A stretch of 64,000 nt of DNA, taken from contig MFTH01000015.1 in the NCBI GenBank assembly GCA_001786765.1, positions 1,548-65,547 on the forward strand. Reading direction: 5' to 3'. Positions 257-52,841 of the stretch are shown here, in pieces; the stretch's first letter is position 1, and each line of letters opens with the position of its first letter. Below the pieces are notes generated by a model. That model did no database searches. It was not told the origin of the DNA and worked only from the letters and a program-made list of their open reading frames with translations. Position numbers and translations under genes: made by a program. The DNA is from Candidatus Nomurabacteria bacterium RIFCSPHIGHO2_01_FULL_37_25 (GTDB taxonomy: Bacteria; Patescibacteriota; Minisyncoccia; Phycocordibacterales; UBA9973).

Positions 257-468
257 ACTGTATATTTAGTATATCAAGCGGTCGGTGTAAGTCAATAGTT
301 ATCCACAGTTTAATTTTATGGCACTACACAAAAATTTCCCAAAAGACCCATTTGTGATAAAAATGGCAACAGGCGCGGGCAAGACCACAGCGAAAATAGC
401 TTGAATCGGTAGTCTCTCCCCAGCCGAGAAATTATTGGAATATAAAAGTAAAAAATAACGAAACGAAT

Positions 469-1800: not shown

Positions 1801-1921
1801 ATCCCGTTAGAAGCTGCAGTAGCAATTTTATTCATAAATCATGTTTATAAAAAATATAAAATTTACTAATATAATCAGGCATAGTTGCAATTTACTGACT
1901 GCGACTTGCTTCTAACGGGAT
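1801..1921 (+). repeat. Family A palindromic element (ATCCCGTTAGAAGC...GCTTCTAACGGGAT), copy A1
   Basis: 14-bp terminal inverted repeats plus internal extended stem; flanked by direct repeat ggatgcaatcc (1794-1804 and 1918-1928); right end overlaps the alaS ATG. Confidence 0.8.
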
Positions 1922-3701
1922 GCAATCCAATGAAATAAGATCAAGATTTTTAAAATTTTTTGAAAATCGTGGACATAAAATAATTCCTTCGGCTTCGCTT
2001 GTTCCTCACAATGACCCTTCTGCGCTTTTTAATACGGCTGGAATGCAACCTCTAGTGCCTTATTTAATGGGACAAAAACATCCGACAGGAAAGCGTATTG
2101 CAGACGTGCAGAAATGCGTGCGCACAGGAGATCTGGATGATATTGGCGACAACAGGCATCTTTCTTTTTTTGAAATGATGGGCAACTGGTCTCTTGGAGA
2201 TTATTTTAAGGAAGATGCTATCAAGTGGAGTTACGAATTTTTGACTTCAAAAAAAGAAGGTCTTGGGCTTGATCCAAACCGGCTTTATTTTACAGTTTTT
2301 GAAGGAAATGAAAATGCGCCATATGATGAAGAATCAAAAAAAATTTGGATGAATTTGGGAATTCCAGAACATCGTATTTATGCGCTTCCAGCAGATGACA
2401 ATTGGTGGAGTCCGGGAGACAATGGTCCATCAGGCCCGTGTAGTGAAATGTTTTATGATATGGTAGGTGATGTGGGTGACATAAATCATAAAGAATTTTT
2501 GCTCGCAATTAAAGAAGAGCATGTAGTCGAAATCTGGAATGATGTGTTCATGGAATACGAAAAGAAAAATGGAAAAGTTGTTGGTAAATTAAAACAAAAA
2601 AATGTTGATACTGGCGCTGGACTTGAGAGAATTACAGCGGTGATGCAAGGCAAAAAAACTGCTTATGATACGGATTTATTTAAACCTGTAATGGAAATCA
2701 TAAAAGCCAAATCAAAAAATTACAATGCTAAATCGGCTCGTATAATCGCAGACCATTTGCGCGCTAGTATTTTTATAATTTCCGAAGGCGTATTGCCTTC
2801 TAATAATGGTAGAGAATACATATTGCGTCGTCTATTGCGCAGGGCTGTTAGGCATGCGGATAATATTGGTTTTCCAGAGAATAAACTTGCTCTTAGTTTG
2901 GCAGTGATATTCATAAAACAGTACGCTGAAATTTATCCAGAATTAAAAGAAAAAAAAGATTTAATCACAGGGCAGATTCTAAAGGAAGAAAACAGATTCA
3001 GGGAAACATTGTCTAAAGGTTTAAAAGAATTTGGAAAAGGCACAGATCCGTTTATTTTATTTACGACTTATGGTTTTCCAATAGAACTCACTCTTGAACT
3101 TGCAAAAGAAAAAGGAGTAAAAATTAATATTGAAGATTTTAATAGAAAGATGATAGAACATCAGAAACTTTCTCAAACTGCATCAGCAGGGATGTTTAAG
3201 GGGGGATTAGCGAATCATAATGAAAAGACAATCAAGCTTCACACCGCGCACCATTTGCTTTTGGCCGGACTTCAAAGTGTTGTAGATAAAAATGTAAAAC
3301 AGCGAGGCAGTAATATCACTGAAGAAAGGTTGCGAATAGATTTCACTTGTGACCATAAATTGACCGAGGAAGAAAAGAAAAAGGTGGAAGATTGGGTAAA
3401 TGATAAAATTAAACGGGGGTTAAATGTCGTGCGTAAAGAGATGCCACTTAAAGATGCAGAAAAAATTGGAGCAGAAATGGAATTTGGCGCTAAATACACA
3501 GATATAGTGTCTGTGTATTTTATAGAAGATAAAGCTGGCAATATTGTGTCAAAAGAATTTTGCGGTGGTCCGCATGTCAAGAATACGACAGAATTGTATT
3601 CTTCATTACGAGAAAAATCTGGGGATAATAGCCCATTTAAAATTCAAAAAGAAGAAGCAGTAGCGCAAGGAATTCGACGCATCAAAGCTGTACTTTTGTG
3701 A
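1920..3701 (+). CDS. alaS: alanyl-tRNA synthetase, short form lacking the C-terminal C-Ala domain
   Basis: N-terminal class II core (FNTAGMQP), editing-domain HxxxH (HTAHHLL) and GGPHV; only 593 aa. Confidence 0.85.
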   Translation: MQSNEIRSRFLKFFENRGHKIIPSASLVPHNDPSALFNTAGMQPLVPYLMGQKHPTGKRIADVQKCVRTGDLDDIGDNRHLSFFEMMGNWSLGDYFKEDAIKWSYEFLTSKKEGLGLDPNRLYFTVFEGNENAPYDEESKKIWMNLGIPEHRIYALPADDNWWSPGDNGPSGPCSEMFYDMVGDVGDINHKEFLLAIKEEHVVEIWNDVFMEYEKKNGKVVGKLKQKNVDTGAGLERITAVMQGKKTAYDTDLFKPVMEIIKAKSKNYNAKSARIIADHLRASIFIISEGVLPSNNGREYILRRLLRRAVRHADNIGFPENKLALSLAVIFIKQYAEIYPELKEKKDLITGQILKEENRFRETLSKGLKEFGKGTDPFILFTTYGFPIELTLELAKEKGVKINIEDFNRKMIEHQKLSQTASAGMFKGGLANHNEKTIKLHTAHHLLLAGLQSVVDKNVKQRGSNITEERLRIDFTCDHKLTEEEKKKVEDWVNDKIKRGLNVVRKEMPLKDAEKIGAEMEFGAKYTDIVSVYFIEDKAGNIVSKEFCGGPHVKNTTELYSSLREKSGDNSPFKIQKEEAVAQGIRRIKAVLL

Positions 3702-11018: not shown

Positions 11019-11597
11019 ATGAACGATGAAGAAGAAAAACCAAAGGAAACCGATTCTGAAGTTCTTGAATTTGAATTCAACGAAGATGGAGAGGAGGATT
11101 TGAAGAAAACTCTAAAGAAATTGAGAGAGGATTTGAAAGTGGCCAAAAAAGAGAAAGAAGAATATCTGACTGGCTGGCAAAAAGAACGGGCGGAATTTGT
11201 TAACTACAAAAAAGGGGAAGATGATAGAAAAGCCATGTTTTCAGAATCAATGCGTGAACGAATATTGACTAGATTTCTTACGGTAGTGGATAGTTTTAAT
11301 ATGGCCTTCGCCAATCGTGAGACTTGGGACAAAGTAGATGAAAACTGGAGAAAAGGCGTAGAATATATTTATGGACAGATGAATACAATTTTTGAAGAAT
11401 ACGGAGTGAAACCAATAGGCGAACTAGGAGAAGTTTTTAATCCAAATATTCATCAACCGATAGAAATGACACCAACAGAAAAAAAAGAGCAAGACTATAC
11501 GGTCTCCAATGTTATTCAAAAAGGATATAAATTAGGTGAGCGTGTTATGCGCCCTGCTCAAGTAAATGTTTATGAGTATAAAAAAGCAGAGAATTAA
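11019..11597 (+). CDS. grpE: nucleotide exchange factor GrpE
   Basis: Coiled-coil N-terminus, AEFVNYKKG (GrpE ADFENYRKR-like), upstream of dnaK. Confidence 0.8.
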   Translation: MNDEEEKPKETDSEVLEFEFNEDGEEDLKKTLKKLREDLKVAKKEKEEYLTGWQKERAEFVNYKKGEDDRKAMFSESMRERILTRFLTVVDSFNMAFANRETWDKVDENWRKGVEYIYGQMNTIFEEYGVKPIGELGEVFNPNIHQPIEMTPTEKKEQDYTVSNVIQKGYKLGERVMRPAQVNVYEYKKAEN

Positions 11598-11603
11598 AAG
11601 TTG

Positions 11604-12158
11604 TCACTTTCCAAAAGTCTCAAATAAAGATTTTTTTGTTTCTTCATCTACAAATTGAGTGACAATAATCATCATTTCTGTTGTTAAACCCAAATCTCTT
11701 TTTATATTTGTAAATAAATGTTCAAACGGAAAAGGGGAAATCCAAGCAGAATTTTTCAAACAAACAAAGCCAGCTTTTTTAAGAAGATAGCGTAGAGACT
11801 CACGTTCACTTTTTCTCGGCTCTGGCAGATCGAGTAAAATAATTCTCCAAAATCCATCCCATGAAGTATTTACTAGAGTCGTGTCGCTACCCAATTTCAA
11901 GCTATGCATTTTTCTCTTACCATCTTTTGTCAAACGCACAAATTCATTATGCGGAGATGGTATTTGTTCAATCAAACCAGCACCCTTAAGTCCCTTTAAA
12001 GAGCGCGTAATAGCATAATTATCACGAGACAATGCTTTAGACGTTACCTTAGCATCTAAAGCATTGTCTCGAATTTCAGATAGAGATATAGCATTTTTTT
12101 GCCCCAATATTCGTAATATTTTATTAGAATACTGAGTTTTTTGGTTTTTACTTGACAT
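11604..12158 (-). CDS. hypothetical protein, possible winged-helix regulator
   Basis: Sits between grpE and dnaK on the opposite strand; no confident motif. Confidence 0.35.
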   Translation of the reverse strand: MSSKNQKTQYSNKILRILGQKNAISLSEIRDNALDAKVTSKALSRDNYAITRSLKGLKGAGLIEQIPSPHNEFVRLTKDGKRKMHSLKLGSDTTLVNTSWDGFWRIILLDLPEPRKSERESLRYLLKKAGFVCLKNSAWISPFPFEHLFTNIKRDLGLTTEMMIIVTQFVDEETKKSLFETFGK

Positions 12159-12302
12159 ACCTATATATTATAATATATACTGCTTTTTAGCAAATATTTC
12201 GTGATTACTAAATACTTGCTAAAAATAAATTATTACTATATAATGGCTTTAATTAATTATTAACCCCAATTATCGGATTGGGATTTAAAATATAAAAATA
12301 TT

Positions 12303-14204
12303 ATGAGTAAAATAATAGGTATAGATTTGGGTACAACAAATTCAGCTGTGGCGGTGATTGAAGGAGGAGTGCCAAAAATTATTGAAAATATCGAAGGCAA
12401 TCGCACTACGCCTTCTGTAGTGGCGACTGCAAAAAATGGTGATCGTGTTGTTGGACTTTTGGCGCGAAGACAAGCTATTACAAATCCAGAAAATACAATT
12501 GCGGAAATCAAGCGTTTTATGGGGCATCGTTTTGATGATGGGGAGGTGCAGAAAGATCGTACTTCAACGTCATTTAAAATTGAAGCTAGCGATGGAGGAG
12601 GAGTGAAAATCAAAATGACAGATAAATTTTACCGACCGGAAGAAATTTCTGCGATGATTTTACAAAAAATAAAAACAGACGTTGAGGCAAAGCTGGGTGA
12701 AAAAATCACTGAAGCTGTCATCACCGTGCCTGCGTATTTTAACGATGCGCAAAGAAAGGCAACCAAAGACGCTGGAGCTATCGCGGGACTAGATGTTAAA
12801 AGAATAATCAATGAACCTACCGCGGCCGCGCTTGCTTATGGTTTTGATAAAAAGAAAAATGAAAAAATAGTGGTCTATGATTTCGGTGGAGGAACTTTTG
12901 ATGTGTCTGTCTTAGAGATAGGCGGGGATGTGATAGAAGTAAAGTCTATTGATGGAGACAGTCATATGGGTGGAGGTGATATTGATAGAAAAATAGTTAG
13001 ATGGATTTCTGACGAATATAAAAAGGAATCTGGCATTGATGTAACTAGAGACCCACTGGCGCATCAAAGATTACGAGAAGCGGCTGAAAAAGCAAAGCAT
13101 GAACTTTCTACGACGATCGAAGCGGAAATAAATATTCCTTTTATAACTTCGGACGCTACCGGACCAAAGCATTTACTTATGAAAATGTCTCGCGCTACTC
13201 TAGAGTCGCTTACGAAAGATTTGATTGATCGTTCTATTGAAATAACTAAAAGAGCGCTAGATGCTTCACCCTTCAAGATAAATGAAATAAATGAAATCAT
13301 TATGGTGGGTGGGCAGACTCGAATGCCTAAGATTGTGGAAGCTGTTAAAAATCTTTTTGGCAAAGAACCAAATATGTCTATCAACCCTGATGAAGTGGTA
13401 GCGCTCGGCGCCGCAGTTCAGGCAGGTGTGCTCGCTGGAGATGTGCGTGATGTGCTTTTGCTCGATGTCATACCACTTTCTTTGGGCATTGAGACACTTG
13501 GAGGGGTGGCTACAAAATTAATTGAAAGAAATACGACTATTCCATCAAATAAATCTCAAGTATTTTCCACAGCGGCTGATAATCAAACTTCTGTGGAAAT
13601 TCATATTGTCCAAGGGGAGCGTCCTATGGCATCCGACAACAGATCCTTAGGCCGATTTATCTTAGACGGAGTTCCGCCAGCTCCTAGAGGCATGCCTCAG
13701 ATTGAAGTGTCTTTTGATGTTGATGCAAATGGAATTTTGAATGTTACAGCTAAAGACAAGGCTTCTGGTAAAACTCAATCAATTAAAATAGAAGCGAGTT
13801 CTGGATTAAAAGACGAAGAAATTAAAAAAATGCAAAAAGATGCAGAACTTAACGCTACCGAAGATAAAAAAAAGAAAGAAGTTGTTGATATAAAAAATAC
13901 CGCGGAGATGATTATTTATACCGCTGAAAAAGCATTGAAGGATAATGAAACAAAAATTCCTGCTGAATTAAAAGACAGCGTCAATGCTAAAATTACTGCG
14001 CTAAAAACTGTAAAAGATGGAACTGATGGAGAAGCAATTAAAAAAGCTACAGAAGAACTATCTGCCGAAATGTCAAAAATAGGAGAAGCGATGGCAAAAG
14101 CCGGAACTCCTCCTCCATCTGGAGCTCCAGAAGAGCAAAATCCTGAAGTAAAAGACGCGGAATTTAAAGAGAAGAAAGAAGGAGAAGAAGAAACGCCAAA
14201 ATAA
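12303..14204 (+). CDS. dnaK: molecular chaperone DnaK (Hsp70)
   Basis: [29 protein letters not shown] Hsp70 signatures; 633 aa. Confidence 0.95.
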
Positions 14205-14223
14205 TAATTGTCTACATATAAAC

Positions 14224-14284
14224 TAGAAAGCACCAGAGAGCAGTGCTTTCTAGTGCTTGGTCATAATCCGGAGACCCGGATTAT
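14224..14284 (+). terminator. two consecutive perfect hairpins after dnaK (ctagaaagcac..gtgctttctag; ataatccgg..ccggattat)
   Basis: 11-bp and 9-bp perfect stems; no strong T-tract; may terminate dnaK and/or mark the island boundary. Confidence 0.45.
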
Positions 14285-14424
14285 GCCAATAATTAAAATT
14301 GACACTGTGATTATCGCTAACCAATATAATGCTGGCATAATCACCTCCAGTTGGAGTATAGCACAATATGGTTAACTGTACATGCTCTTGACACAGGTGA
14401 TACACTTTTGATACACTATCTTAT

Positions 14425-14646
14425 ATGACCACAATTAAAAAAAGAATAAATATTTCGTTATCACCAAGCTTAAATATAATGCTCTCTCGCATTGCAAAAC
14501 GTGATAATATTCCTCAAGCCACAAAAGCTATCCATCTTCTTGAGATGGCTCTTGAAATAGAAGAGGATTTTGTTTTTGATAAAATTGCGCGTGAGCGTGA
14601 TACAAAAAACGCTCGTTTTTTAGATCACAAACAAGTCTGGGCGTAA
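14425..14646 (+). CDS. putative antitoxin (ribbon-helix-helix-like) of a type II TA pair
   Basis: 73-aa ORF ending 4 nt before a RelE/ParE-like ORF; the N-terminal KRINISLSPSL is consistent with an RHH beta-strand. Confidence 0.5.
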   Translation: MTTIKKRINISLSPSLNIMLSRIAKRDNIPQATKAIHLLEMALEIEEDFVFDKIARERDTKNARFLDHKQVWA

Positions 14647-14649
14647 AAT

Positions 14650-14928
14650 ATGAGTTATAAAATATTATACGTAGATAAGGTTGTAAAAGATGATATTCCT
14701 AAAATATCAGGTTTATATAAGAGTCGTATTAAGCAAGCTATTGAAACAAGATTGGTTACTACGCCGGATTTATATGGAAAACCGCTACGAAAATCACTAA
14801 AGGGTTATTTGAAACTAAGGGTTGGTGATTACAGAATAATTTTTAGAATAGAAAATTTAAGGGTAAAAATTTTTGCAATTGCGCACCGCAAAATAGTTTA
14901 TGGAATTATTAGCGGAAGAATTTACTAG
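14650..14928 (+). CDS. RelE/ParE-family toxin
   Basis: 92 aa, ...GYLKLRVGDYRIIFRIENLRVKIFAIAHRK matches the RelE/ParE fold consensus; tightly coupled to the upstream small ORF. Confidence 0.7.
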   Translation: MSYKILYVDKVVKDDIPKISGLYKSRIKQAIETRLVTTPDLYGKPLRKSLKGYLKLRVGDYRIIFRIENLRVKIFAIAHRKIVYGIISGRIY

Positions 14929-14960
14929 ATTTTAATACTAAAATCACGTATAATTTAAGG

Positions 14961-16970
14961 ATGGATCTACCTGAAATACCCATAAATAAAGAGATTACAT
15001 ATCTTGGGCTCACCACTTATCGGGATAAGAATCAGCTTTTTGGTATCAAGCGTAAAGACAGACGTCAGCATGTTTATATTCTCGGAAAGTCTGGTACCGG
15101 TAAATCAGCATTGATGTTTAATATGATCATCCAGAACATCCAAAATGGCGACGGAGTTTGTATGGTTGATCCCCATGGAGAAAATGTCGAAGCAGTTCTC
15201 TCTGCTATTCCGCCACATCGAATGAAAGACGTAATTTATTTTAACCCAGCCGACGCAGATCATCATATTGGATTTAATGTCTTAGAACTTATTGACCCGC
15301 AATACAAACATTTAGTGGCTTCGGGACTAATGGGTATTTTCACTAAAATTTGGGCGAATGCGTGGAGCGCCCGAATGGAATATATTTTAAATAATTGTAT
15401 TTTGGCATTACTTGATACTCCGGGAACGACGCTCCTCGGAATCCCTCGTATGTTAGTGGACAAGGATTATCGTCAAAAAATAATTTCAAATTTAAAAGAT
15501 CCGGTGATTAAAGCTTTTTGGGTGCACGAGTATGAAGCTTGGCAGGATAAATTTAGAAATGAAGCTATTGCGCCGATCCAAAATAAAGTCGGACAATTCC
15601 TTTCCACTTCTATTATTCGAAATGTCGTTGGTCAATCCAAAAGTACTATAAATATTTTTGATATGATGAATGACGGAAAGATTTTTCTGGTGAATGTTTC
15701 AAAAGGACGCATTGGTGAAGACAATTCATCTTTGCTTGGTGGAATGATTATTACCAAAATCCAGCTTGCCGCTATGGAGCGTGTGCGTATCCCGGAAGAA
15801 TCTCGCAAAGATTTTTATCTTTATGTGGATGAATTTCAAAATTTTGTGACTGACGCTTTTGCCGGTATTTTATCTGAAGCTAGAAAATATAGATTAAATT
15901 TAACCGTTGCTCATCAATACACCGCTCAACTTATTTCAGACAAAAGTTCAGCGGTGCGGGACGCTGTTTTTGGCAACGTCGGCACAATGATAGTTTTTAG
16001 AGTTGGATCTGATGATGCAGAATTTTTAGAAAAAGAATTTGATCCAGAATTTACTCCGCAAGATATAGTGAATTTACCTAACTACAAGGTTTATTTAAAA
16101 TTAATGATAGATGGTGTGACCTCTCGTCCTTTTTCGGCGAAAACCTTACCGCCTTTGATAAAGTCAGGCGATCAAAAAATCGAAGCAGAAGTAATCAGGA
16201 CATCTCGCGAACTCTATTGCCGTCCCAAAGAAGTAGTGGAAAAAGAAATAAATGACTGGAGCGGAATGTCGCTAGGCAATGATAATGAGCATGGAAATGG
16301 AAATATGGAAAAATTTCCAGTGATATGTTCATTTTGCAAGAAAGAAACTACAGTGCCTTTCAAGCCGGAAAAAGGAAGGCCAGTTTATTGTAAAGACTGC
16401 ATAGCTAGAATAAAGTCCGGTGAGATAAAAGTAGAGAAAAGTTCGGAGAATCAAATTAAATATGATGAAACAAAATTTTTTAAACCGCTGGCTGATCTAG
16501 GCATAGAGTTTCAGCCAAAAAGTGAGCCTCTGCAGGCAAAAAAAATCCAAGAAGAAAGATATCCAGAGAGAGTTGATAAACATCAGATAGAGAAACCTCC
16601 TTCCGCCCTGCCTGTCCAAAAGGCGACTTTGGGCAAATCTGGAATATTGGGAACTATTAAAAAAGTTTTTAGTAAAAACAATACGACCTCAACAAAACCC
16701 GTCAAAGAAAATATTGCGTTAAGGGAAGTTTTAAATAAAATAAATGAACCGGTTTCACTCGACACACTAAAAAATAAAACTAAAAAAACTGCGCCCACAA
16801 AAGACCGCTCTGCTAGTCCTGAAGATATGAATAAATTAAAAGATTTGATTTTAGAAAAGACTGAAAAAACTAAAGAAACAGAAGTCAAAAAAGAAGAAAC
16901 AACTCCACCCGCTACTTCTAAAACTAAAGAAGTGCCAGAAGATGTTCTAAGAAAAATTTTAGAATCATAA
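14961..16970 (+). CDS. soluble T4CP/TrwB-like P-loop ATPase (type IV secretion DNA-binding-domain family) with C-terminal zinc ribbon and Lys-rich tail
   Basis: Walker A GKSGTGKS, downstream DPHGE (DPKGE-like of VirD4/TrwB), Walker B LYVDEFQNF; no TM helices; CSFCKK..(19)..CKDC ribbon; paralog of 19431-20981. Confidence 0.6.
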   Translation: MDLPEIPINKEITYLGLTTYRDKNQLFGIKRKDRRQHVYILGKSGTGKSALMFNMIIQNIQNGDGVCMVDPHGENVEAVLSAIPPHRMKDVIYFNPADADHHIGFNVLELIDPQYKHLVASGLMGIFTKIWANAWSARMEYILNNCILALLDTPGTTLLGIPRMLVDKDYRQKIISNLKDPVIKAFWVHEYEAWQDKFRNEAIAPIQNKVGQFLSTSIIRNVVGQSKSTINIFDMMNDGKIFLVNVSKGRIGEDNSSLLGGMIITKIQLAAMERVRIPEESRKDFYLYVDEFQNFVTDAFAGILSEARKYRLNLTVAHQYTAQLISDKSSAVRDAVFGNVGTMIVFRVGSDDAEFLEKEFDPEFTPQDIVNLPNYKVYLKLMIDGVTSRPFSAKTLPPLIKSGDQKIEAEVIRTSRELYCRPKEVVEKEINDWSGMSLGNDNEHGNGNMEKFPVICSFCKKETTVPFKPEKGRPVYCKDCIARIKSGEIKVEKSSENQIKYDETKFFKPLADLGIEFQPKSEPLQAKKIQEERYPERVDKHQIEKPPSALPVQKATLGKSGILGTIKKVFSKNNTTSTKPVKENIALREVLNKINEPVSLDTLKNKTKKTAPTKDRSASPEDMNKLKDLILEKTEKTKETEVKKEETTPPATSKTKEVPEDVLRKILES

Positions 16971-16971
16971 A

Positions 16972-17316
16972 ATGCGAATAAAAATAATAGATAAAAAAAT
17001 ATCAAAAGACGAACTTCAAGAAATTGCAAAGGAATTTTATGTTGTGATGATAAAAGGTGTTGTGGATGTCGAGCGTGACATTTTAGCCGTGGGTGGAGAA
17101 TACCACATGGATGCAAATAATGTTCTTATTGAAAATAATTCCAAACAGCAAAATATTTGGGGTTTTAACTGGTATTTAGATAAGTCCACAGAGGAATCTA
17201 TTGAATATGTTTCACTTATAAATATTCGTCCAGCGCAAGGCAATAGAGTAATGGAGGTACAAGATTCGTCTTTGCGTGATAAAATGAAATCCATAATATT
17301 AAAATATTTATCATGA
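16972..17316 (+). CDS. hypothetical protein
   Basis: 114 aa; start is 1 nt after the ATPase stop; overlaps the next ORF by 4 nt (ATGA). Confidence 0.4.
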   Translation: MRIKIIDKKISKDELQEIAKEFYVVMIKGVVDVERDILAVGGEYHMDANNVLIENNSKQQNIWGFNWYLDKSTEESIEYVSLINIRPAQGNRVMEVQDSSLRDKMKSIILKYLS

Positions 17317-17603
17317 ACACAACTAGAACACCTTTATTTTATATGGCTAATTTAGGAAGTGAAATGTCACGCGCCGTTTTGGCGTATCAAAAAGCAGATT
17401 TTACAAGTATGAACGATTCAATAATTCGCGCGAAAAATATAATTGAAAAAATCAAAGAATTTCCAGAAATGAAAGGAAGGACAAATGAACTAGAAATTTT
17501 AGAATCTATAGTGGAAAATATGAGACAAAAAAAATTCGAGATGGATAAAAATCAACTTCTAGATTATTTTTCTCCATTTGCCACTAGACTTATGTCTATC
17601 TAA
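17313..17603 (+). CDS. hypothetical protein
   Basis: 96 aa; translationally coupled to the upstream ORF. Confidence 0.4.
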   Translation: MNTTRTPLFYMANLGSEMSRAVLAYQKADFTSMNDSIIRAKNIIEKIKEFPEMKGRTNELEILESIVENMRQKKFEMDKNQLLDYFSPFATRLMSI

Positions 17604-17624
17604 ATATTTAATATTCATTAAATT

Positions 17625-19406
17625 ATGGTGTATGAAAATAAAAAGAAAATATGTCAAAACTGTAAACAAGAATTCACCATAGAACCAGAGGATTTTAATT
17701 TCTATGAAAAAATAAAAGTGCCAGAGCCAACTTTTTGCCCGGAATGTAGAATGATTCGTCGGATGACTTGGCGCAATGAACGTTCGCTTTTCAAACGACC
17801 TTGCGATAAAACTGGAAAACAAATCATTAGCATGTTTCACCCCGAAGCTAAGGTTGTAGTCTATGATCATGACATTTGGTGGTCTGACCAATGGGAGCCG
17901 ACTGATTACGGTAAAGATTACAACTTTAACCGTCCATTTTTTGAGCAATTTAAAGAACTGCTTTCTCAAGTTCCATTAGCCAATCTAGGAAATTCAAACA
18001 GTGTTGGCAGTCCTTATGGCAATCATAACGCAGATTGCAAAGACTGTTACTTATTATATGCCTCATTCGGAAGCGAGCGAACGCATTATTCTTATGGAGC
18101 AGTTCATTTGAAGGATTGCATGGATATGTATACTTGCCTTGATTCTGAATTGTGTTACGAAGACATTGTGAGCGCTGATTTATATAAAACTCATTTTTCT
18201 TATGATGCGGATGAATCCCTCAATTGCTTCTTTCTGAAATATTCCAAAAATATGCAAGACAGCATCGGCTGTATAAATTTAAGAAATAAAAAACGGTGTA
18301 TTTTAAATGTAGAATATTCGAAAGAAGAATATGAAAAAAGAAAAAAAGAATTAGATTTTGGTAGTTACCGTACACTATCTCAATTTGAAAATACTTTTCA
18401 TCAATTCGTCTTAAATTTTCCTTATAGATACGCGCACACAATGAAATCTCTAAATGTTACAGGGGATAATATTATAAATTCTAAAAATGCAAAAAACTGT
18501 TTTGATCTTTATGGAGGAGCTGAAGATGTGAAGTATGTAACTCATTTCGTAGAGGGAAAAGATAGCTATGATTTATACGGAGGGGGAGCAGGAGCATCTC
18601 TTATGTATGAAGGAGTTGACGTTGGAATACAAGCGTCTAAAGAATTATTTGCTGTATTTACTCATGGTTGCCTTGAAACTTATTATACTTACATGTGTTA
18701 CAGTTCTAAAAATCTTTTTGGATGCATCGGTATGCGTGGCAAGCAATACTGTATTTTAAATAAACAATATACTAAAGAAGAATATTTTAAACTTGTGCCG
18801 AAAATTATTGAACAAATGAATACCGTGCCGTATTTTGATAAAAAAGGAATAACTTATAAATATGGGGAATTTTTCCCCAGTGAATTATCTCCTTTTACTT
18901 ATAATGAAACTATTGCCCAAGAGTATTTTCCAAAAGAAAAAGAAGAAATTATTAGAAACGGATACAGCTACAGAGCATCGCTAGAAAAAGATTACCAAAC
19001 GACCATCGAAAGTGATGACTTGCCGGATCATATAAAAGATGTTTCAGAAGCAATCACAGAGGAGGTAATCGCTTGTCCTAATAACGGTAGTGTTCTGACT
19101 CAATGCGCTAAAGCTTATCGCATTATCAAATCGGAATTGGATTTTTTAAAAAACAACAATATAGCTTTGCCTCGATATTGTCCAAATTGTCGTCATTACA
19201 AGAGACTGAAACAAAGAAATCCATTTAAACTCTGGCATGCTAAATGCCAGTGTTTCGGGTCTAATTATAAAAATGAAAAATATAAAAATACGGTAGAGCA
19301 TATTCACGGAGATGAACCCTGTCCAAACGAATTTGAAACAAGTTATGCTCCAGACCGACCAGAAATTATTTATTGTGAGAAATGTTATCAGCAAGAAGTT
19401 TACTAA
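17625..19406 (+). CDS. cysteine-rich protein with N- and C-terminal zinc-ribbon motifs
   Basis: CQNC..(23)..CPECR..RR, CPNCRHYKR..., CEKC; the ribbon pattern (CxxC..F.P....C..C) resembles the C-terminal ribbon of the 14961 ATPase. Confidence 0.5.
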   Translation: MVYENKKKICQNCKQEFTIEPEDFNFYEKIKVPEPTFCPECRMIRRMTWRNERSLFKRPCDKTGKQIISMFHPEAKVVVYDHDIWWSDQWEPTDYGKDYNFNRPFFEQFKELLSQVPLANLGNSNSVGSPYGNHNADCKDCYLLYASFGSERTHYSYGAVHLKDCMDMYTCLDSELCYEDIVSADLYKTHFSYDADESLNCFFLKYSKNMQDSIGCINLRNKKRCILNVEYSKEEYEKRKKELDFGSYRTLSQFENTFHQFVLNFPYRYAHTMKSLNVTGDNIINSKNAKNCFDLYGGAEDVKYVTHFVEGKDSYDLYGGGAGASLMYEGVDVGIQASKELFAVFTHGCLETYYTYMCYSSKNLFGCIGMRGKQYCILNKQYTKEEYFKLVPKIIEQMNTVPYFDKKGITYKYGEFFPSELSPFTYNETIAQEYFPKEKEEIIRNGYSYRASLEKDYQTTIESDDLPDHIKDVSEAITEEVIACPNNGSVLTQCAKAYRIIKSELDFLKNNNIALPRYCPNCRHYKRLKQRNPFKLWHAKCQCFGSNYKNEKYKNTVEHIHGDEPCPNEFETSYAPDRPEIIYCEKCYQQEVY

Positions 19407-19430
19407 ATTTTATGTTAAAATAATTTCTAT

Positions 19431-20981
19431 ATGCCAAAGCCAAATCGAGTTCAAATAATAAAATACGGACCTCCGCCACCAGAATTACCTGTTTTTGGCA
19501 AGGTAAAACCGGAAGATGTTTCTTTTATTGGGCGGACAAATTATGTGGCTTCACTGGAAGAAAAGAAGTTTATTTTTGGCATTAAGCGAATAGACAGAAG
19601 ACGCCACCTTTATATCATAGGGAAGTCAGGTGTGGGTAAAACCAAGCTTCTCGAGCTCATGCTTCGACAGGATATTACGTACAAGCATGGGCTTTGCCTG
19701 ATTGACCCACACGGAGATGTGATAGAAGCAATGCTTGACTACATACCAAAAGAACGCATTGAGGACGTCTGCATAATAGACCCCACTGACCTTGATTTTC
19801 CAGCTTCTTTTAATCCGCTCGCGAATGTTGATCCATTATTCAAATTTCAACTAACTCAAGGATTAATCGAAGTTTTTCAAAAACAATTTGGAGCAAACTG
19901 GACACCAAGACTGGAGCACGTTTTCCGTTTTACTTGTCTCGCGCTTTTAGATTATCCGCATGCCACTATGCGCGGAATGATATCTATGCTAACAGATAGA
20001 AATTATCGGCAGAAGGTGGTGGAATATATTACGGACGACATGGTAAAAAGATTCTTCGCTATAGAATTCGCCGATTGGTCTGAAAAATTTGACACCGACG
20101 CCATCATTCCTTTAGTAAATAAACTCGGGCAGTTTCTTTCTGACCCGCTACTACGCAATATTTTTGGACAAAAGCAAAACAAGATAGATATCAGTAAATT
20201 GATGAATGATGAGAAAATTATTTTGATTAATCTTTCAAAAGGTCGCCTCGGTGAAGAAAACTCTTCTTTCCTCGGTTCTATATTTTTAACCAAGATCAAA
20301 CAAGCTGGTATGGAACGCGCCGCTATCCCTGAAAAAGAACGCAAGGACTTTTATATATATGTAGATGAGTTTCAAAATGTGGTAACGCAAACATTTGAAA
20401 ATATTCTCTCTGAAGCGCGCAAATACGGACTCAACCTTACTATGGCGCATCAGTATGTAGGTCAGATTATTACTAAGGTTCATCAAGCTGTGCTCGGCAA
20501 TTGTGGAAGCATCATAACCTTCCGCGTTGGCGGGGAAGACGCAGTTAAGATGAAACCCGAATTCTCTCCACTATTTGATGTGAAGGATATGATTAATCTT
20601 GCCGTGGCGGAATTCTACATAAAAATGACAATAGACGGTGAATCCTATGATCCATTTTCAGCCGAGACTCTACGGGTATTACCTCCAACTCATCCATCAT
20701 ATAAACAAGAAATAATTGACTCATCTCGTAGAAAATATTCTATTCCAAAAGGGGATGCGGCTAAACTCATTGCTGAAGAAGAAGCTACGATAATCAGAAG
20801 CGCAGAAGAAAAAGCGATTATTGAGAGTAAGGCTAAAAGGCTTGCCCGTAGCGCTACGTCCGAAGAAAAAGAGGGGAATGGGGTGGAAGCCCCAACGCTT
20901 GAAGAGGTCGGGGTCCCGACCGAAAGCGTCGGGGAAAAACCTAACCCAAAAACTTCGCAAGAAGCGGAGCCTATGATATAA
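19431..20981 (+). CDS. soluble T4CP/TrwB-like P-loop ATPase, paralog 2
   Basis: GKSGVGKT, DPHGD, IYVDEFQNV; shares long blocks with 14961-16970 (e.g. GQFLS.P.LRNI.GQ, SKGR.GE.NSS.LG); the C-terminus carries a GC-rich repeat. Confidence 0.6.
   Translation: MPKPNRVQIIKYGPPPPELPVFGKVKPEDVSFIGRTNYVASLEEKKFIFGIKRIDRRRHLYIIGKSGVGKTKLLELMLRQDITYKHGLCLIDPHGDVIEAMLDYIPKERIEDVCIIDPTDLDFPASFNPLANVDPLFKFQLTQGLIEVFQKQFGANWTPRLEHVFRFTCLALLDYPHATMRGMISMLTDRNYRQKVVEYITDDMVKRFFAIEFADWSEKFDTDAIIPLVNKLGQFLSDPLLRNIFGQKQNKIDISKLMNDEKIILINLSKGRLGEENSSFLGSIFLTKIKQAGMERAAIPEKERKDFYIYVDEFQNVVTQTFENILSEARKYGLNLTMAHQYVGQIITKVHQAVLGNCGSIITFRVGGEDAVKMKPEFSPLFDVKDMINLAVAEFYIKMTIDGESYDPFSAETLRVLPPTHPSYKQEIIDSSRRKYSIPKGDAAKLIAEEEATIIRSAEEKAIIESKAKRLARSATSEEKEGNGVEAPTLEEVGVPTESVGEKPNPKTSQEAEPMI
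20904..20935 (+). repeat. Family C3 GC-rich hairpin (gaggtcggggtcccgaccgaaagcgtcgggga), in frame at the C-terminus of ATPase paralog 2
   Basis: Encodes VGVPTESVGEK; same element in recR (25871-25917) encodes VGVPTASVGNK. Confidence 0.75.
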
Positions 20982-21020
20982 AAATTTTGATTTTTTAGTA
21001 TAATTTGATAATATAAAATT

Positions 21021-22121
21021 ATGAATAAAGATTATTACAATACCTTGGGTGTTAATAAGACTGCCTCAAAAGACGAAATAAAAAAGGCTTTTTATAAATT
21101 GGCGCATAAATATCATCCTGATAAAAAAGAAGGTAATGAGGCGAAATTTAAGCAAGTAAATGAGGCTTATCAGGTTCTTTCAGATGACACTAAGCGCTCC
21201 AAATACGATCAGTACGGGGCGGGTTTTGAAAATATAGGACAGGGATATGGCGGAGGTCAGCAAGGTGGCTTTGGTGGTTTTGATTTTTCTGGTGCTGGAG
21301 GTTTTGGAAATGGCAATGCTGAATTTGATTTTGCCAATCTGAATGATATTTTTAGTGATTTCTTTGGTGGTGGCGCGAGTCAAACGAGGAGGGAAGTAAG
21401 ACGAGGCCGAGATATTTCAACGGAAATCCAAATCTCTTTTTCTGATTCTATTTTTGGCGCTAATAGAAAAATTTTAATTACTAAAACATCAAATTGTCTG
21501 ACATGTCATGGTTCTGGAGCAAAAACAGGTTCGGGGGTGGTAACTTGTAAAACTTGCAATGGCCAAGGTCATGTTCGTGAATCAAAAAGAACAATTTTTG
21601 GAAATATTGCGAGTACAAAAATTTGTGAAATTTGTCTGGGAACAGGGGAAATACCTAAAGAGGTTTGTGAGACATGCAGAGGTAAAGGTGTCTTGCGTCG
21701 TGAAGAAGAAGTTTCAATTGTTATTCCAGCCGGGATAAGAGATGGAGAGATGATTCGAATGACAGGTTATGGTGAAGCAGTTTCAAAAGGAACAGCTGGT
21801 GACCTTTATATAAAAATAAATGTGGCGCCACACGCCGTATTCAAGCGTGATGGTAGCGATCTAGTGATGAATTTGAATTTAAAACTTTCTGACGCCCTTC
21901 TAGGCGCAGAATATCCAATTCAAACCTTAGATGGTGAAATCAAGGTTACTATTCCAGAAGGTGTATCAATAAACGAAATTCTTCGCGTCAGAGGCAAAGG
22001 TGTGCCAACAGCCAAAAATAGACGCGGGGATCTTCTCATTAAACTCAACATAAAACTTCCTTCAAAAATTTCTCGCAAATCTCGCGAACTAATAGAAGAA
22101 CTAAAAAAAGAGGGCGTGTAA
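21021..22121 (+). CDS. dnaJ: chaperone DnaJ
   Basis: J-domain with HPD (YHPDKK), G/F-rich region, four CxxCxGxG zinc-finger repeats. Confidence 0.9.
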
Positions 22122-22124
22122 AAG

Positions 22125-22706
22125 ATGCTTCCTGAAAAAATTATCTATATTAGTTTAGTCATAACCTTAGTAGCATATTTTTTCTATTTCAAAGATATAC
22201 TTTTGGGAAATACTAAACCAAATTTAGTTTCGTGGTTTTTGTGGATGTTGGGGCCATTTCTTGGTGTATTTTTTCAAATTAAAGCTGGAGCGGGGCTTTC
22301 TGTAATTCCCGTATTTATTGCTGGTTTTGGACCTTTGCTTGTTGTTATTTTTACTGTTTTTAGAAAAAACGCATATTGGAAATTAAATATTTTAGATTTA
22401 TTTTGTGGAATATTTTCTATACTCGCATTAGTATTGTATGTTGTGACACATAATTTAGCATTATCAATTATTTTTGCAATTTTGAGCGACTTTTGGGCTT
22501 TCATACCAACTTATATAAAAGGATGGAAATTCCCGGAAACTGAAACAGCGAGTGTTTACTTGTCAGGTATATTTAATAATATTTTGGGTTTGCTTATTAT
22601 AAAAAATTGGTCTTTTACCATATATTCATTTGGGGTGTACCTAATAATTGCTAATATTATTATGGTTTATTTTTTATACAGAAAAAAGATTTTTAAACAA
22701 CTATGA
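22125..22706 (+). CDS. polytopic membrane protein, hypothetical
   Basis: Several hydrophobic helices; no motif recognised. Confidence 0.4.
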   Translation: MLPEKIIYISLVITLVAYFFYFKDILLGNTKPNLVSWFLWMLGPFLGVFFQIKAGAGLSVIPVFIAGFGPLLVVIFTVFRKNAYWKLNILDLFCGIFSILALVLYVVTHNLALSIIFAILSDFWAFIPTYIKGWKFPETETASVYLSGIFNNILGLLIIKNWSFTIYSFGVYLIIANIIMVYFLYRKKIFKQL

Positions 22707-51461: not shown

Positions 51462-52841
51462 TTATTCTTTGAATTTCTTTAGGCAGTATATTAAAAGAGA
51501 AATTACAAAAGCAATTAATAAAACAGGTAGAATGCAATATTCTTGAATCAAGCTAGCTAAAATCATCACCAAAAAAGAAGAACCTACAAAAAAAAGGTAG
51601 AATCTATTCCAAATTTCCTTTTCTGGCATTCTAGATTCTTCATACTTTTTTCTAATCCATAAATGCCAAATCATATATAATGCTAAAAGTATGAGAATGC
51701 CAATTAAAGTACAAATCGATACTAGATTATCAAAACCAGAAAGCAATACATTAGCGACTAAATTATTATCTAAATCTAGATTATCATCTTCTATTTGAGA
51801 CGCATCCCCTTCAGAATTTGTGTCAGAAAATTCTGAGCTCGTCGGACTTGAAAACCCTTCAGAATCTGAACGGTCCGTTGATGAATCATCTGTGTTTACG
51901 GAGGAGTTTCCTCCGTCTATGTTTGGATTATTTGGATTATTCGTAGCGAGTAAAGGTACTGCGAAATATTTTTCAAAACTTATAGTCGGTGGTGAAGCGC
52001 GAGAAACAACACGATAAACATAAGTTTGTCCTGGAGTAAGTCCTGTTATTAATACAGAGTGATGCAAAACTTTGGTTGGGTCTTCAATAGTGCCAGATGG
52101 GTATCCAAAATATAATGCATTCATATCCAGAGTATATAAAGGAGGAGTTGGTCCATAAACGACCTGACTAGTTGACAGAACATTCGTGTCCCAAGTTATT
52201 GTCGCTGTAGCTGTCGCTGGGAATCCGCCTACTTCCGTAATATCTACTGTTTTTTCATTAAATATAGTAAGAACTATTGGCCCTCCCCCACTTCCGCCTC
52301 CATTCGAAGGACCTCCGCCTGTCGAGGGGCCTCCGTCTGTATCATTTTCATCTCCCACAACAGTATCGCCACAATGTTTTGTCCCGCCTGAAAATCCAAC
52401 GCAGACATCAAAACCAAGAGTTTTCCCTTGATAAGAATTATCACTTGAATCAACAAAAGAAATAGTATAAGTAAAAACCTTGGATTCTCCGTTAGTAATT
52501 GCGCCTAAAGAAACTTCACCGGCAGTTGAGAGAAAATTAGCAAGAGTATCATCAAATAAAATTCCGCTAGTTCCTGCTATTTCAAGATGCAAAAGACTGC
52601 CAAAATTATCATTGTCTGTTACATTAATTGCTTCAGTTAAAATAGTCTGTGACGCTCCAGAATTATTGGTGACTGTTATCTCTCCATTTGTTTCATCGCT
52701 AGGTAGAAAGTTGGGTTTGTTAAATAATGGATCCGGGACAAATGTTACCTGAAGCGGCGCGGCGAAAACATTCGAAGTAAAACCAAAGAGCGTTATTATT
52801 GTGAGTACAGAGAATATAAATTTTTGAATTAATGTTTTCAT
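51462..52841 (-). CDS. secreted surface protein with Gly/Pro/Ser linker, acidic S/D-rich region and C-terminal TM anchor
   Basis: Classical signal peptide (..SNVFAAP), DGGPSTGGGPSNGGGSGGGP linker, C-terminal hydrophobic helices. Confidence 0.45.
   Translation of the reverse strand: MKTLIQKFIFSVLTIITLFGFTSNVFAAPLQVTFVPDPLFNKPNFLPSDETNGEITVTNNSGASQTILTEAINVTDNDNFGSLLHLEIAGTSGILFDDTLANFLSTAGEVSLGAITNGESKVFTYTISFVDSSDNSYQGKTLGFDVCVGFSGGTKHCGDTVVGDENDTDGGPSTGGGPSNGGGSGGGPIVLTIFNEKTVDITEVGGFPATATATITWDTNVLSTSQVVYGPTPPLYTLDMNALYFGYPSGTIEDPTKVLHHSVLITGLTPGQTYVYRVVSRASPPTISFEKYFAVPLLATNNPNNPNIDGGNSSVNTDDSSTDRSDSEGFSSPTSSEFSDTNSEGDASQIEDDNLDLDNNLVANVLLSGFDNLVSICTLIGILILLALYMIWHLWIRKKYEESRMPEKEIWNRFYLFFVGSSFLVMILASLIQEYCILPVLLIAFVISLLIYCLKKFKE

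Follow-up and report, generated by a model that had tools for sequence, protein, structure and literature searches.

Gene content of the dnaK-dnaJ interval

The window, by which is meant the whole stretch of DNA that was analysed, comprises 64,000 nucleotides (nt) of contig MFTH01000015.1 (positions 1,548 to 65,547) from Candidatus Nomurabacteria bacterium RIFCSPHIGHO2_01_FULL_37_25, which belongs to the Paceibacteria, a class of the candidate phyla radiation, and coordinates are numbered from its first letter. Its dnaK and dnaJ genes are separated by a set of genes (Table 1) in which two paralogous ATPases of the type IV coupling protein (T4CP) family, designated ATP1 and ATP2, bracket a cysteine-rich protein of 593 amino acids (aa), designated Cys593, and two small open reading frames (ORFs), one encoding a DUF5674 protein and the other a 96-aa protein. 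Comparison with related loci showed that the real unit is an ATPase-array-ATPase cassette, the array being made up of Cys593 genes, and that this linkage outlasts changes of genomic context. A preliminary description of the window, made from the sequence and its ORFs, had placed the same gene set between dnaK and dnaJ behind two perfect hairpins; all of the ORFs that it listed and both hairpins were found where it had put them. It had also taken grpE and dnaK to be adjacent, which was not borne out, as a PaaX-like gene on the opposite strand intervenes. From the antitoxin gene through dnaJ and beyond, all genes run in one direction with intergenic gaps of -4 to 39 nt, a packing so tight that co-transcription of the cassette with the chaperone genes is possible.

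Table 1. Features of the cassette, its flanks and the Cys593 protein. Positions are window coordinates in nt unless given in aa.
Feature	Position	Strand	Description
grpE	11019..11597	+	Upstream flank; orthologs with Pfam GrpE in locus L004
PaaX-like winged helix-turn-helix/Cas2-like regulator	11604..12158	-	Divergent from dnaK; Pfam PaaX_M E = 3.8e-19
dnaK (HSP70)	12303..14204	+	Orthologs with Pfam HSP70; 78-93% identity across loci
First perfect hairpin	14222-14233/14243-14254		12-nt arms; right after dnaK
Second perfect hairpin	14262-14271/14276-14285		10-nt arms; right after dnaK
Sigma-70-like promoter match	14388..14417	+	TTGACA-18-TACACT, TG-extended; consensus match only; 8 nt before antitoxin ORF
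Putative antitoxin (73 aa)	14425..14646	+	Basic; ends 3 nt before ParE
ParE/RelE-fold toxin (92 aa)	14650..14928	+	Pfam ParE_toxin 35.2 bits (cut-off 23)
ATP1 (669 aa)	14961..16970	+	Soluble T4CP-family ATPase; zinc ribbon; basic disordered tail
DUF5674 protein (114 aa)	16972..17316	+	Pfam DUF5674 E = 5.6e-36
96-aa ORF (h96)	17313..17603	+	4-nt overlap with DUF5674 gene; translationally coupled
Cys593 (593 aa, 27 Cys)	17625..19406	+	Zinc fingers and beta-solenoid modules
Cys593, N-terminal finger	aa 10-60		zf_Tbcl-like zinc finger
Cys593, duplicated modules	~aa 133-240 and ~281-391		Beta-solenoid
Cys593, second finger	aa 484-541		zf_Tbcl-like zinc finger
Cys593, C-terminal finger	C566/C584/C587		CxxC-x17-type
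ATP2 (516 aa)	19431..20981	+	Soluble T4CP-family ATPase; no zinc ribbon; acidic tail
dnaJ	21021..22121	+	Downstream flank; orthologs with Pfam DnaJ, DnaJ_C, DnaJ_CXXCXGXG
193-aa multi-pass membrane protein	22125..22706	+	Assigned by hydropathy; 3 nt past dnaJ end

Conservation of the cassette across Paceibacteria

Related loci, referred to by L numbers, were collected with the Cys593 alignment alone as seed against 185,579 species genomes; from the more than 582 relatives obtained, 80 loci were retained. The proteins of the window were mapped onto the kept loci and onto contigs from an exact-protein look-up, giving 82 non-redundant loci. All of the kept loci except L079 are labelled as Patescibacteria/Paceibacteria-type or as unclassified bacteria. 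An ATPase of the family is present in 44 of the 82 loci and both ATPases are present in 27. The arrangement dnaK-(variable small ORFs)-ATP1-(zero to four Cys593)-ATP2-dnaJ-(193-aa membrane protein) is found in 19 of these 27, which come from different genera and most often have two Cys593 copies between the ATPases; three others keep the order ATP1-then-ATP2 in other contexts, and the remaining five are reversed (ATP2-array-ATP1). A Cys593 gene lies within two genes of 32 of the 37 ATP1 genes and of 32 of the 34 ATP2 genes.

The closest relative with context, L086 (Cys593 80% identical), reads 143aa-ATP1-Cys586-Cys593-DUF5674-96aa-ATP2-83aa-179aa-dnaJ, and L004 shows the same block as the window. 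Throughout the Nomurabacteria-type lineage the cassette is housed within the grpE-dnaK-dnaJ operon. Loci of the Staskawiczbacteria type have the cassette in a different setting, secD-secF-(sigma-70 region 4 and HARE-HTH protein)-(464-aa transmembrane protein)-ATP1-Cys593 xN-[CutA1]-ATP2-Cys593 xN. The window itself represents the minimal form, with one Cys593 copy, to which the DUF5674/96-aa pair and a ParE/antitoxin module are added. In the more distant RAAC4_OD1_1 (L001, L012), dnaK and dnaJ are adjacent, and the cassette therefore entered the dnaK-dnaJ site at some past point.

The preliminary description had interpreted the block as an insertion island splitting the dnaK-dnaJ operon, and had itself named the presence of the same genes at the same place in related genomes as the observation that would speak against it. 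Since such genomes were found (the 19 loci above), the island reading fails. GC content is 0.31-0.43 inside the block and 0.30-0.42 outside it, with no difference from the flanks. No tRNA gene and no Rfam family was detected in the window, no relative of Cys593 in IMG/VR viral contigs, and no integrase among the block proteins or the neighbouring ORFs scanned. Searches against PADLOC-DB 2.0 gave only single-protein matches to the ATPase domains, namely to mad8 (E = 3.6e-16 for ATP1 and 5.1e-12 for ATP2), to HerA (weak) and to DndH, with no complete defence system and nothing for the other five block proteins. No partner of the HerA/FtsK type (NurA, Sir2 or other) is present, and the NCBIfam HerA_antiphage score is 19 bits against a cut-off of 800. 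A defence island was rejected for want of a complete PADLOC system and because the core genes are conserved and syntenic; the earlier suggestion of a defence or mobile element fits the toxin-antitoxin pair and does not hold for the core cassette. The statement that the gene set matches no named system agrees with the PADLOC result. It can be said with high confidence that the cassette is conserved and non-mobile.

The two ATPases

Both ATPases exceed the Pfam cut-off for TrwB_AAD_bind (42.3 bits for ATP1 and 30.5 bits for ATP2; cut-off 20.5), those for T4SS-DNA_transf and TraG-D_C, and that for DUF87 (32.3 and 25.3 bits, respectively; cut-off 23.2). Both carry the motifs Walker A GKSG(T/V)GK(S/T), DPHG(E/D) and Walker B VDEFQN, Walker A lying at aa 42-49 in ATP1 and starting at aa 64 in ATP2. 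The Walker A and DPHG(E/D) motifs are as originally reported, and the Walker B motif of ATP1 required correction from (Y/I)YVDEFQN to LYVDEFQN. The maximum Kyte-Doolittle average over 19 residues is 1.13 for ATP1 and 1.06 for ATP2, and no segment exceeds 1.6. As judged from their sequences, ATP1 and ATP2 are thus soluble members of the T4CP family without transmembrane (TM) helices, and the earlier assignment to this superfamily as TM-less paralogs was upheld by the Pfam scores, the hydropathy maxima and the identity given below.

A zinc ribbon of the form CxxC-x17-CxxC is located at aa 456-480 of ATP1 (nt 16326-16400) and is of the treble-clef, zf_Tbcl_2 type; the segment aa 450-483 matches PF23477 with 48.2 bits (cut-off 27) and TIGR04272 with 50.6 bits (cut-off 36). 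The preliminary description had given the ribbon a spacing of 19 residues, which is replaced here by 17, and had recognised the Lys/Thr/Glu-rich disordered tail, for which its length of about 200 aa is revised to 186 (aa 484-669). This tail is basic, with an isoelectric point (pI) of 9.4, and that of ATP2 is acidic (pI 4.6). The ribbon (at about aa 450-480) and a long tail occur in all full-length ATP1-type genes flanking Cys593 arrays and in none of the ATP2-type genes.

ATP1 and ATP2 share 46% identity over 432 aa and fall into separate orthologous groups in every locus examined; the duplication is therefore ancient. That the two arose by duplication had been noted before and stands; a recent duplication was rejected in view of these stable groups. 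ATP2 orthologs are 83-95% identical to ATP2 of the window (best 120 clusters at 90% identity), and within the loci ATP2 is 84-92% identical, as compared with 78-93% for DnaK and 50-83% for DnaJ. Among the ATP2 orthologs, names assigned by NCBI include 'type IV secretion system DNA-binding domain-containing protein'. In sequence searches of the PDB, the nearest relative of ATP1 was TrwB (PDB 1E9R family; P-loop only, E = 5e-5), and ATP2 gave no match. The sole strong match in PHROGs was phrog_5156 (824 aa), aligned with ATP1 at 1.9e-61 over profile positions 385-805; weaker matches include the terminase large-subunit family phrog_2666.

Membrane-associated relatives of these ATPases were also observed. 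A 464-aa TM protein is encoded directly upstream of ATP1 in the Staskawiczbacteria-type loci, and there is also a third, fused ATPase class of 787-921 aa; the loci concerned are L025 (4614-6008), L014, L017, L021, L024, L032 (4452-6815), L054 and L080. The 464-aa protein is homologous to the N-terminal extension of the third class (E = 4e-9), and the ATPase family can thus be membrane-tethered in trans; the sequences suggest that split and fused versions of a membrane-tethered ATPase exist. In the profile phrog_5156 the match to the ATPase falls in the C-terminal half, and this profile may share the fused layout, a likeness drawn by length only. No homolog of the 464-aa N-domain/TM protein is present within the window.

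The Cys593 protein family

Cys593 of the window matched no Pfam or NCBIfam family at cut-off; it is 100% identical to an NCBI entry of isolate RIFCSPHIGHO2_01_FULL_37_2x. Searches of protein clusters gave more than 7,900 matches at 90% clustering, and an exhaustive profile search at 50% identity gave at least 5,149 clusters with E <= 1e-3, of which 2,260 had E <= 1e-30. Full-length members measure about 550-600 aa with few exceptions. An AlphaFold model computed from a shallow 25-sequence alignment had a predicted local distance difference test score (pLDDT) of 50.6, which rose to 84, with a predicted template modelling score of 0.84, when 128 more diverse homologs were used. No structural relative of Cys593 was found, and the PDB sequence search returned only a marginal match to 3frm.

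The protein is built of repeated parts, namely treble-clef zinc fingers, paired at either end, and a beta-solenoid core that is itself duplicated (Table 1). The two beta-solenoid modules match each other in hhalign with E = 1.6e-35, and both close with the motif GCxxLRNKxYCIxNxxYxKEEY; the N-terminal finger (aa 12-61) and the C-terminal finger (aa 493-542) match with E = 2.5e-15. The zf_Tbcl score of the window protein is 15.3 bits against a cut-off of 24, which the paralogs P0172, P0208 and P0228 pass (26-27 bits). A hidden Markov model (HMM) of the ATP1 ribbon matched 55 of 225 Cys593 members (best E = 1e-7; about 1 in a reversed-sequence control), immediately after the N-terminal finger, at the far C-terminal end or at both places, and a zinc-finger module is therefore common to ATP1 and its neighbours. 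In a set of 65 paralogs sharing less than 50% identity, variation falls in the solenoid segments 121-200 and 241-360, with conserved fingers and two conserved motif regions. The paralogs have 24-27 Cys per protein, and about 90% of them carry a CxxCxxCxxC motif; this central motif is lost in the highly conserved Cys593 of the window (S207, M210, S213). With a pI of 6.0, Cys593 is mildly acidic, and a cytoplasmic location is suggested by the lack of any hydrophobic segment or TM helix together with the N-terminal zinc finger.

The largest array covers 36.6 kb, ends at ATP1 and consists of at least 20 Cys593 paralogs in tandem, all head to tail; it is located in the single amplified genome AH-259-L05 (L038, L069 and L029; contig JALLOO010000001.1, positions 4-38260), where it starts at the contig end. 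According to passages of one report (PMC12857230), Patescibacteria genomes are typically smaller than 1 Mb, and an array of this length would represent a very large investment for such a genome. The literature search returned nothing on Cys593 proteins, on zf_Tbcl or TIGR04272, or, for the candidate phyla radiation, on tandem paralogs rich in Cys. Comprising at least 5,000 clusters at 50% identity, Cys593 is a very large family of 'hypothetical proteins' that deserves a family definition.

Several other genes recur near Cys593 genes. CutA1 (divalent-ion tolerance, PII-like) lies in or beside Cys593 arrays in 11 loci by raw count (L025 11752-12078, L007, L009, L014, L017, L033, L041, L059, L066, L074, L081). 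Half-size ATP-binding cassette (ABC) exporters (ABC_membrane and ABC_tran) are the commonest large array neighbour, making up 11-12 of 47 large unlabelled ORFs, and several lie between Cys593 genes or beside an ATPase (e.g., L019 8125-9918, L022 4489-6288, L061 1363-3129, L078 12087-13865, L003 5545-7344). The Cys593 gene of RAAC4 is located inside a polyamine-biosynthesis cluster (Orn/Arg decarboxylases, a saccharopine dehydrogenase-like protein, CN_hydrolase and agmatine deiminase). In many relatives an additional Cys593 paralog stands between grpE and the PaaX-like gene, a position at which the window has none. A second 593-aa ORF at 1920-3701 (+) was considered as a further Cys593 copy and rejected, as it has no match to Cys593; by eye it looks like a short alanyl-tRNA synthetase, its length equal by coincidence. 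In L026, L047, L055, L056 and L076, a homolog of this ORF is only a few kb away from a Cys593 gene.

Accessory genes and the variable spacer

DUF5674 recurs in L040, L043 and L086, adjoining ATP2, and homologs of the 96-aa protein are directly upstream of ATP2 in L040, L043, L061 and L086, of which L061 has no DUF5674. As the pair stands beside ATP2 in those loci and not beside ATP1, it is an optional, movable accessory. The 96-aa protein has no Pfam or NCBIfam match, PDB sequence searches gave nothing useful for either protein, and no publication on DUF5674 was found.

The spacer between dnaK and ATP1 varies in content, with different small ORFs in different genomes. In the window it begins with the two hairpins, neither of which is a canonical terminator because there is no T-run on the + strand. 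A third perfect inverted repeat, 14279-14288/14333-14342 (10 nt, 44-nt spacer), overlaps the second hairpin and, with the promoter-like site that follows, could supply operator and promoter elements of the toxin-antitoxin pair. That a ParE-type pair is present, as had been reported, is supported by the ParE_toxin score above cut-off (E = 1.8e-8, profile positions 8-89 of 89 covered) and by the small ORF 3 nt upstream. This putative antitoxin matches RelB/ParD below threshold (16.1 bits against a cut-off of 60). The toxin has no counterpart at the same position in any related locus, a single distant ParE being found elsewhere in L021; the antitoxin has no homolog among the related loci fetched, and a search of the plasmid collection with the toxin-antitoxin region gave nothing. 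Among the genes of the block, only the toxin-antitoxin pair is strain-specific; it is an add-on in a variable spacer, outside the cassette. In L087 (ATP2 90% identical), the spacer holds a Trypsin_2 protease and an HAD hydrolase and no toxin-antitoxin pair (L087 154-1641), an example of such spacers as hot spots of accessory gene content; the gene after ATP2 in the same locus encodes a glutaredoxin (11578-11811).

Flanking genes and other features of the window

In the upstream flank, grpE is 71-75% identical (tblastn) to its counterparts in L004, L008, L010, L035, L063 and L078, and the PaaX-like gene is syntenic across all Nomurabacteria-type loci, including these six. Strong promoter-like sites are located at 12147-12244, in the spacer common to the PaaX-like gene and dnaK, and the PaaX-like regulator may control the dnaK operon. 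Downstream, the 193-aa membrane protein has no Pfam match; almost all loci of the Nomurabacteria type have a counterpart of it (52-82% identity) after dnaJ, and it may be a membrane partner of the cassette or a mere operon neighbour. Elsewhere in the window, an 829-aa lamin-tail-domain protein (52846-55335, -) stands beside a 459-aa purple-acid-phosphatase N-domain protein (51462-52841, -), and the two may form a surface or nutrient-scavenging pair.

Proposed function and alternative explanations

The ATPases and Cys593 are likely to be functionally coupled, and the best explanation overall, held with more modest confidence, is that the ATPases act on Cys593 in a vertically inherited system found throughout the Paceibacteria (Parcubacteria). 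How they might do so can be put forward tentatively, as a cargo or translocation mechanism based on analogy. ATP1 and ATP2 would form ring ATPases, as in TrwB. These rings would recognise Cys593 proteins, as suggested by the bracketing of the Cys593 genes, the common ribbon module and the complementary nature of the tails; recognition would pass through the zinc-ribbon module common to ATP1 and the Cys593 family and through the oppositely charged ATPase tails, and the rings would thread or remodel the bound proteins as cargo, or as cargo adaptors, with diversified surfaces. DnaK and DnaJ could support the folding or unfolding of Cys593 proteins, and the most attractive destination would be the type IV secretion apparatus of the Patescibacteria. 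It is conceivable, though we would not presume it, that this constitutes an unrecognised Paceibacteria-specific machine in which two T4CP-derived soluble ring ATPases service a diversifying zinc-finger/beta-solenoid family. If so, the Cys593 proteins would be either the missing cargo, or the cargo adaptors, of the type IV secretion system (T4SS) that is essential in Patescibacteria, or else part of a cytoplasmic system of an entirely new kind linked with Hsp70. The questions that this raises are whether ATP1 and ATP2 bind Cys593, whether Cys593 is exported and why the cassette is wired into an Hsp70 operon.

Several observations weigh against action of the ATPases on Cys593 as secreted cargo. 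Adjacency is the one link between them; the loci are phylogenetically related, so that their counts are not independent, and in some genomes, RAAC4 among them, a lone Cys593 gene is found that has no ATPase closer than 10 kb. In the Cys593 of the window, the sites that the ATP1 ribbon HMM matches are degenerate. True coupling proteins dock on the channel by a membrane anchor, which the ATPases do not have, and the VirB4 family is absent among the large neighbouring ORFs scanned. The anchor Cys593 ortholog and ATP2 are conserved like DnaK; secreted effectors are not usually so, and a housekeeping role, possibly related to nucleic acids, would account for it at least equally well; zinc-finger-rich proteins would also be awkward cargo for secretion.

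A nucleic-acid machine is the first alternative to be weighed. ATP1 and ATP2 would be soluble DNA or RNA translocases, and the Cys593 proteins their zinc-finger partners or specificity factors, employed in chromosome handling or DNA uptake in nucleotide-scavenging bacteria. Membership of the T4CP/FtsK/HerA superfamily is consistent with this, as are the finger regions of Cys593, visibly rich in Arg and Lys by eye, the basic tail of ATP1 and the very high conservation of ATP2, which fits a motor on a universal substrate; treble-clef fingers, moreover, are often nucleic-acid binders. It leaves unexplained, however, why at least 20 diverged paralogs with variable solenoid surfaces should lie between the motors, no nuclease, recombinase, relaxase or competence gene is recurrent among the locus neighbours listed, and Cys593 is mildly acidic overall. 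We consider this alternative unlikely, but by no means negligible.

A role in metal or thiol homeostasis, with Cys593 proteins as zinc or iron-sulfur scaffolds or stores loaded and unloaded by the ATPases and DnaK/DnaJ in the manner of HscA/HscB, is improbable. The abundance of Cys and of the CxxCxxCxxC motif among the paralogs would suit it, as would the embedding of the cassette in an Hsp70 operon and, among neighbours, CutA1, the ABC exporters and the glutaredoxin of L087; these recurrences, however, are raw counts without a genome-wide background. The central Cys motif is gone from the ortholog in the window, the proteins are large, slowly evolving and structured, unlike metallothioneins, and no Suf or Isc genes recur.

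Coincidence, in which ATPases and Cys593 would be unrelated in function and adjacent through inherited gene order, is more improbable still. Most loci come from one bacterial class, in which synteny may simply be inherited, and some Cys593 genes or arrays have no ATPase within 10 kb; yet the linkage holds across three flanking contexts and an inverted ATPase order, the ribbon module of ATP1 is common to the Cys593 family, and arrays consistently expand between the two ATPases. Least credible is the original reading of a horizontally acquired 6.8-kb island (for defence, DNA handling or host interaction) that recently split the dnaK-dnaJ operon, since the adjacency of dnaK and dnaJ in RAAC4, the strain-specific ParE pair and left-edge hairpins and the weak mad8/HerA matches are set against the same block at the same site in 19 loci of different genera, GC content as in the flanks, the lack of an integrase, tRNA gene, viral or plasmid match or complete PADLOC system, and an ATP2 conserved to the level of DnaK.

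Comparison with known systems

The T4CPs (TrwB/VirD4/TraD/TraG), a family expected to form hexameric rings, resemble the cassette ATPases in the P-loop domain with the TrwB all-alpha insertion and in TraG-D_C. The cassette ATPases differ in having no N-terminal TM anchor and no relaxase, VirB4 or VirB6 beside them among the window ORFs scanned and 57 large neighbouring ORFs from the related loci (10 scanned in full, 47 covered by the 25 most frequent of 75 families); a T4SS fragment was rejected for want of VirB4 and VirB6. They also fall far short of the curated models, the best NCBIfam scores being 49-50 bits for SXT_TraD (cut-off 366) and 39-50 bits for CD1115 (cut-off 250), and they form an obligate pair in which ATP1 adds a zinc ribbon and a long disordered tail. 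Because the pair fell short on three features, namely the TM anchor, the linkage to genes for mating-pair formation or a relaxase and the curated scores, it was filed as a divergent soluble branch of the superfamily and set apart from coupling proteins proper.

An FtsK/T4CP-type motor beside diversified presumed clients and small accessory proteins is also known from EssC/EccC of the type VII secretion system and DotL of Dot/Icm, which are comparable by analogy only; we know of no sequence relationship between the cassette and WXG100, LXG or Icm proteins. The cassette motors differ from these in being soluble, and export of Cys593 is hypothetical. The likeness to HerA and to the mad8 component of MADS systems is one of single-protein HMM similarity; the partner genes are missing here, and the cassette genes, far from being patchy, are core genes with synteny and extreme conservation. 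The ParE_toxin gene with its small upstream ORF is like ParDE/RelBE modules; the putative antitoxin, with its sub-threshold match to RelB/ParD, is assigned to no family, and the module is an addition to the cassette.

Patescibacteria account for a large share of bacterial diversity, and unassigned T4CP homologues are already on record in them. Passages of a survey (Quinonero-Coronel et al. 2025; PMC12102498) give 5,713 VirD4-type homologues in 2,918 Patescibacteria genomes, only 148 of them near virB4, or about two VirD4-like genes per genome, and raise the possibility of their takeover for another function. Going by those passages, ATP1 and ATP2 are almost certainly the same genes as the unassigned homologues of the survey, and the passages contain no mention of the ATP1/ATP2 split, of missing TM helices, of a location within the dnaK operon or of Cys593 arrays bracketed by the pair. 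The Patescibacteria T4SS is described, in passages of PMC12102498 and PMC12857230, as the first to be shown essential for growth of its own carrier bacterium, and its substrates are not named in the passages of either. Since, on these passages, an essential T4SS is without named substrates and VirD4-like genes lie away from virB4, the cassette nominates candidate clients.

The literature search returned no publication on an ATPase-Cys593-ATPase gene arrangement. The pairing of the ATPases, their anchor-less nature, their position in the dnaK operon and the bracketing of Cys593 therefore appear to be new, and there is some chance, which we put as rather low, that the system is of a genuinely new type. 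In comparison with the T4CP homologues known so far, the unassigned ATPases are, in the Paceibacteria, a fixed anchor-less pair, among the most conserved proteins of the genome, and bracket a family that can expand to at least 20 copies.

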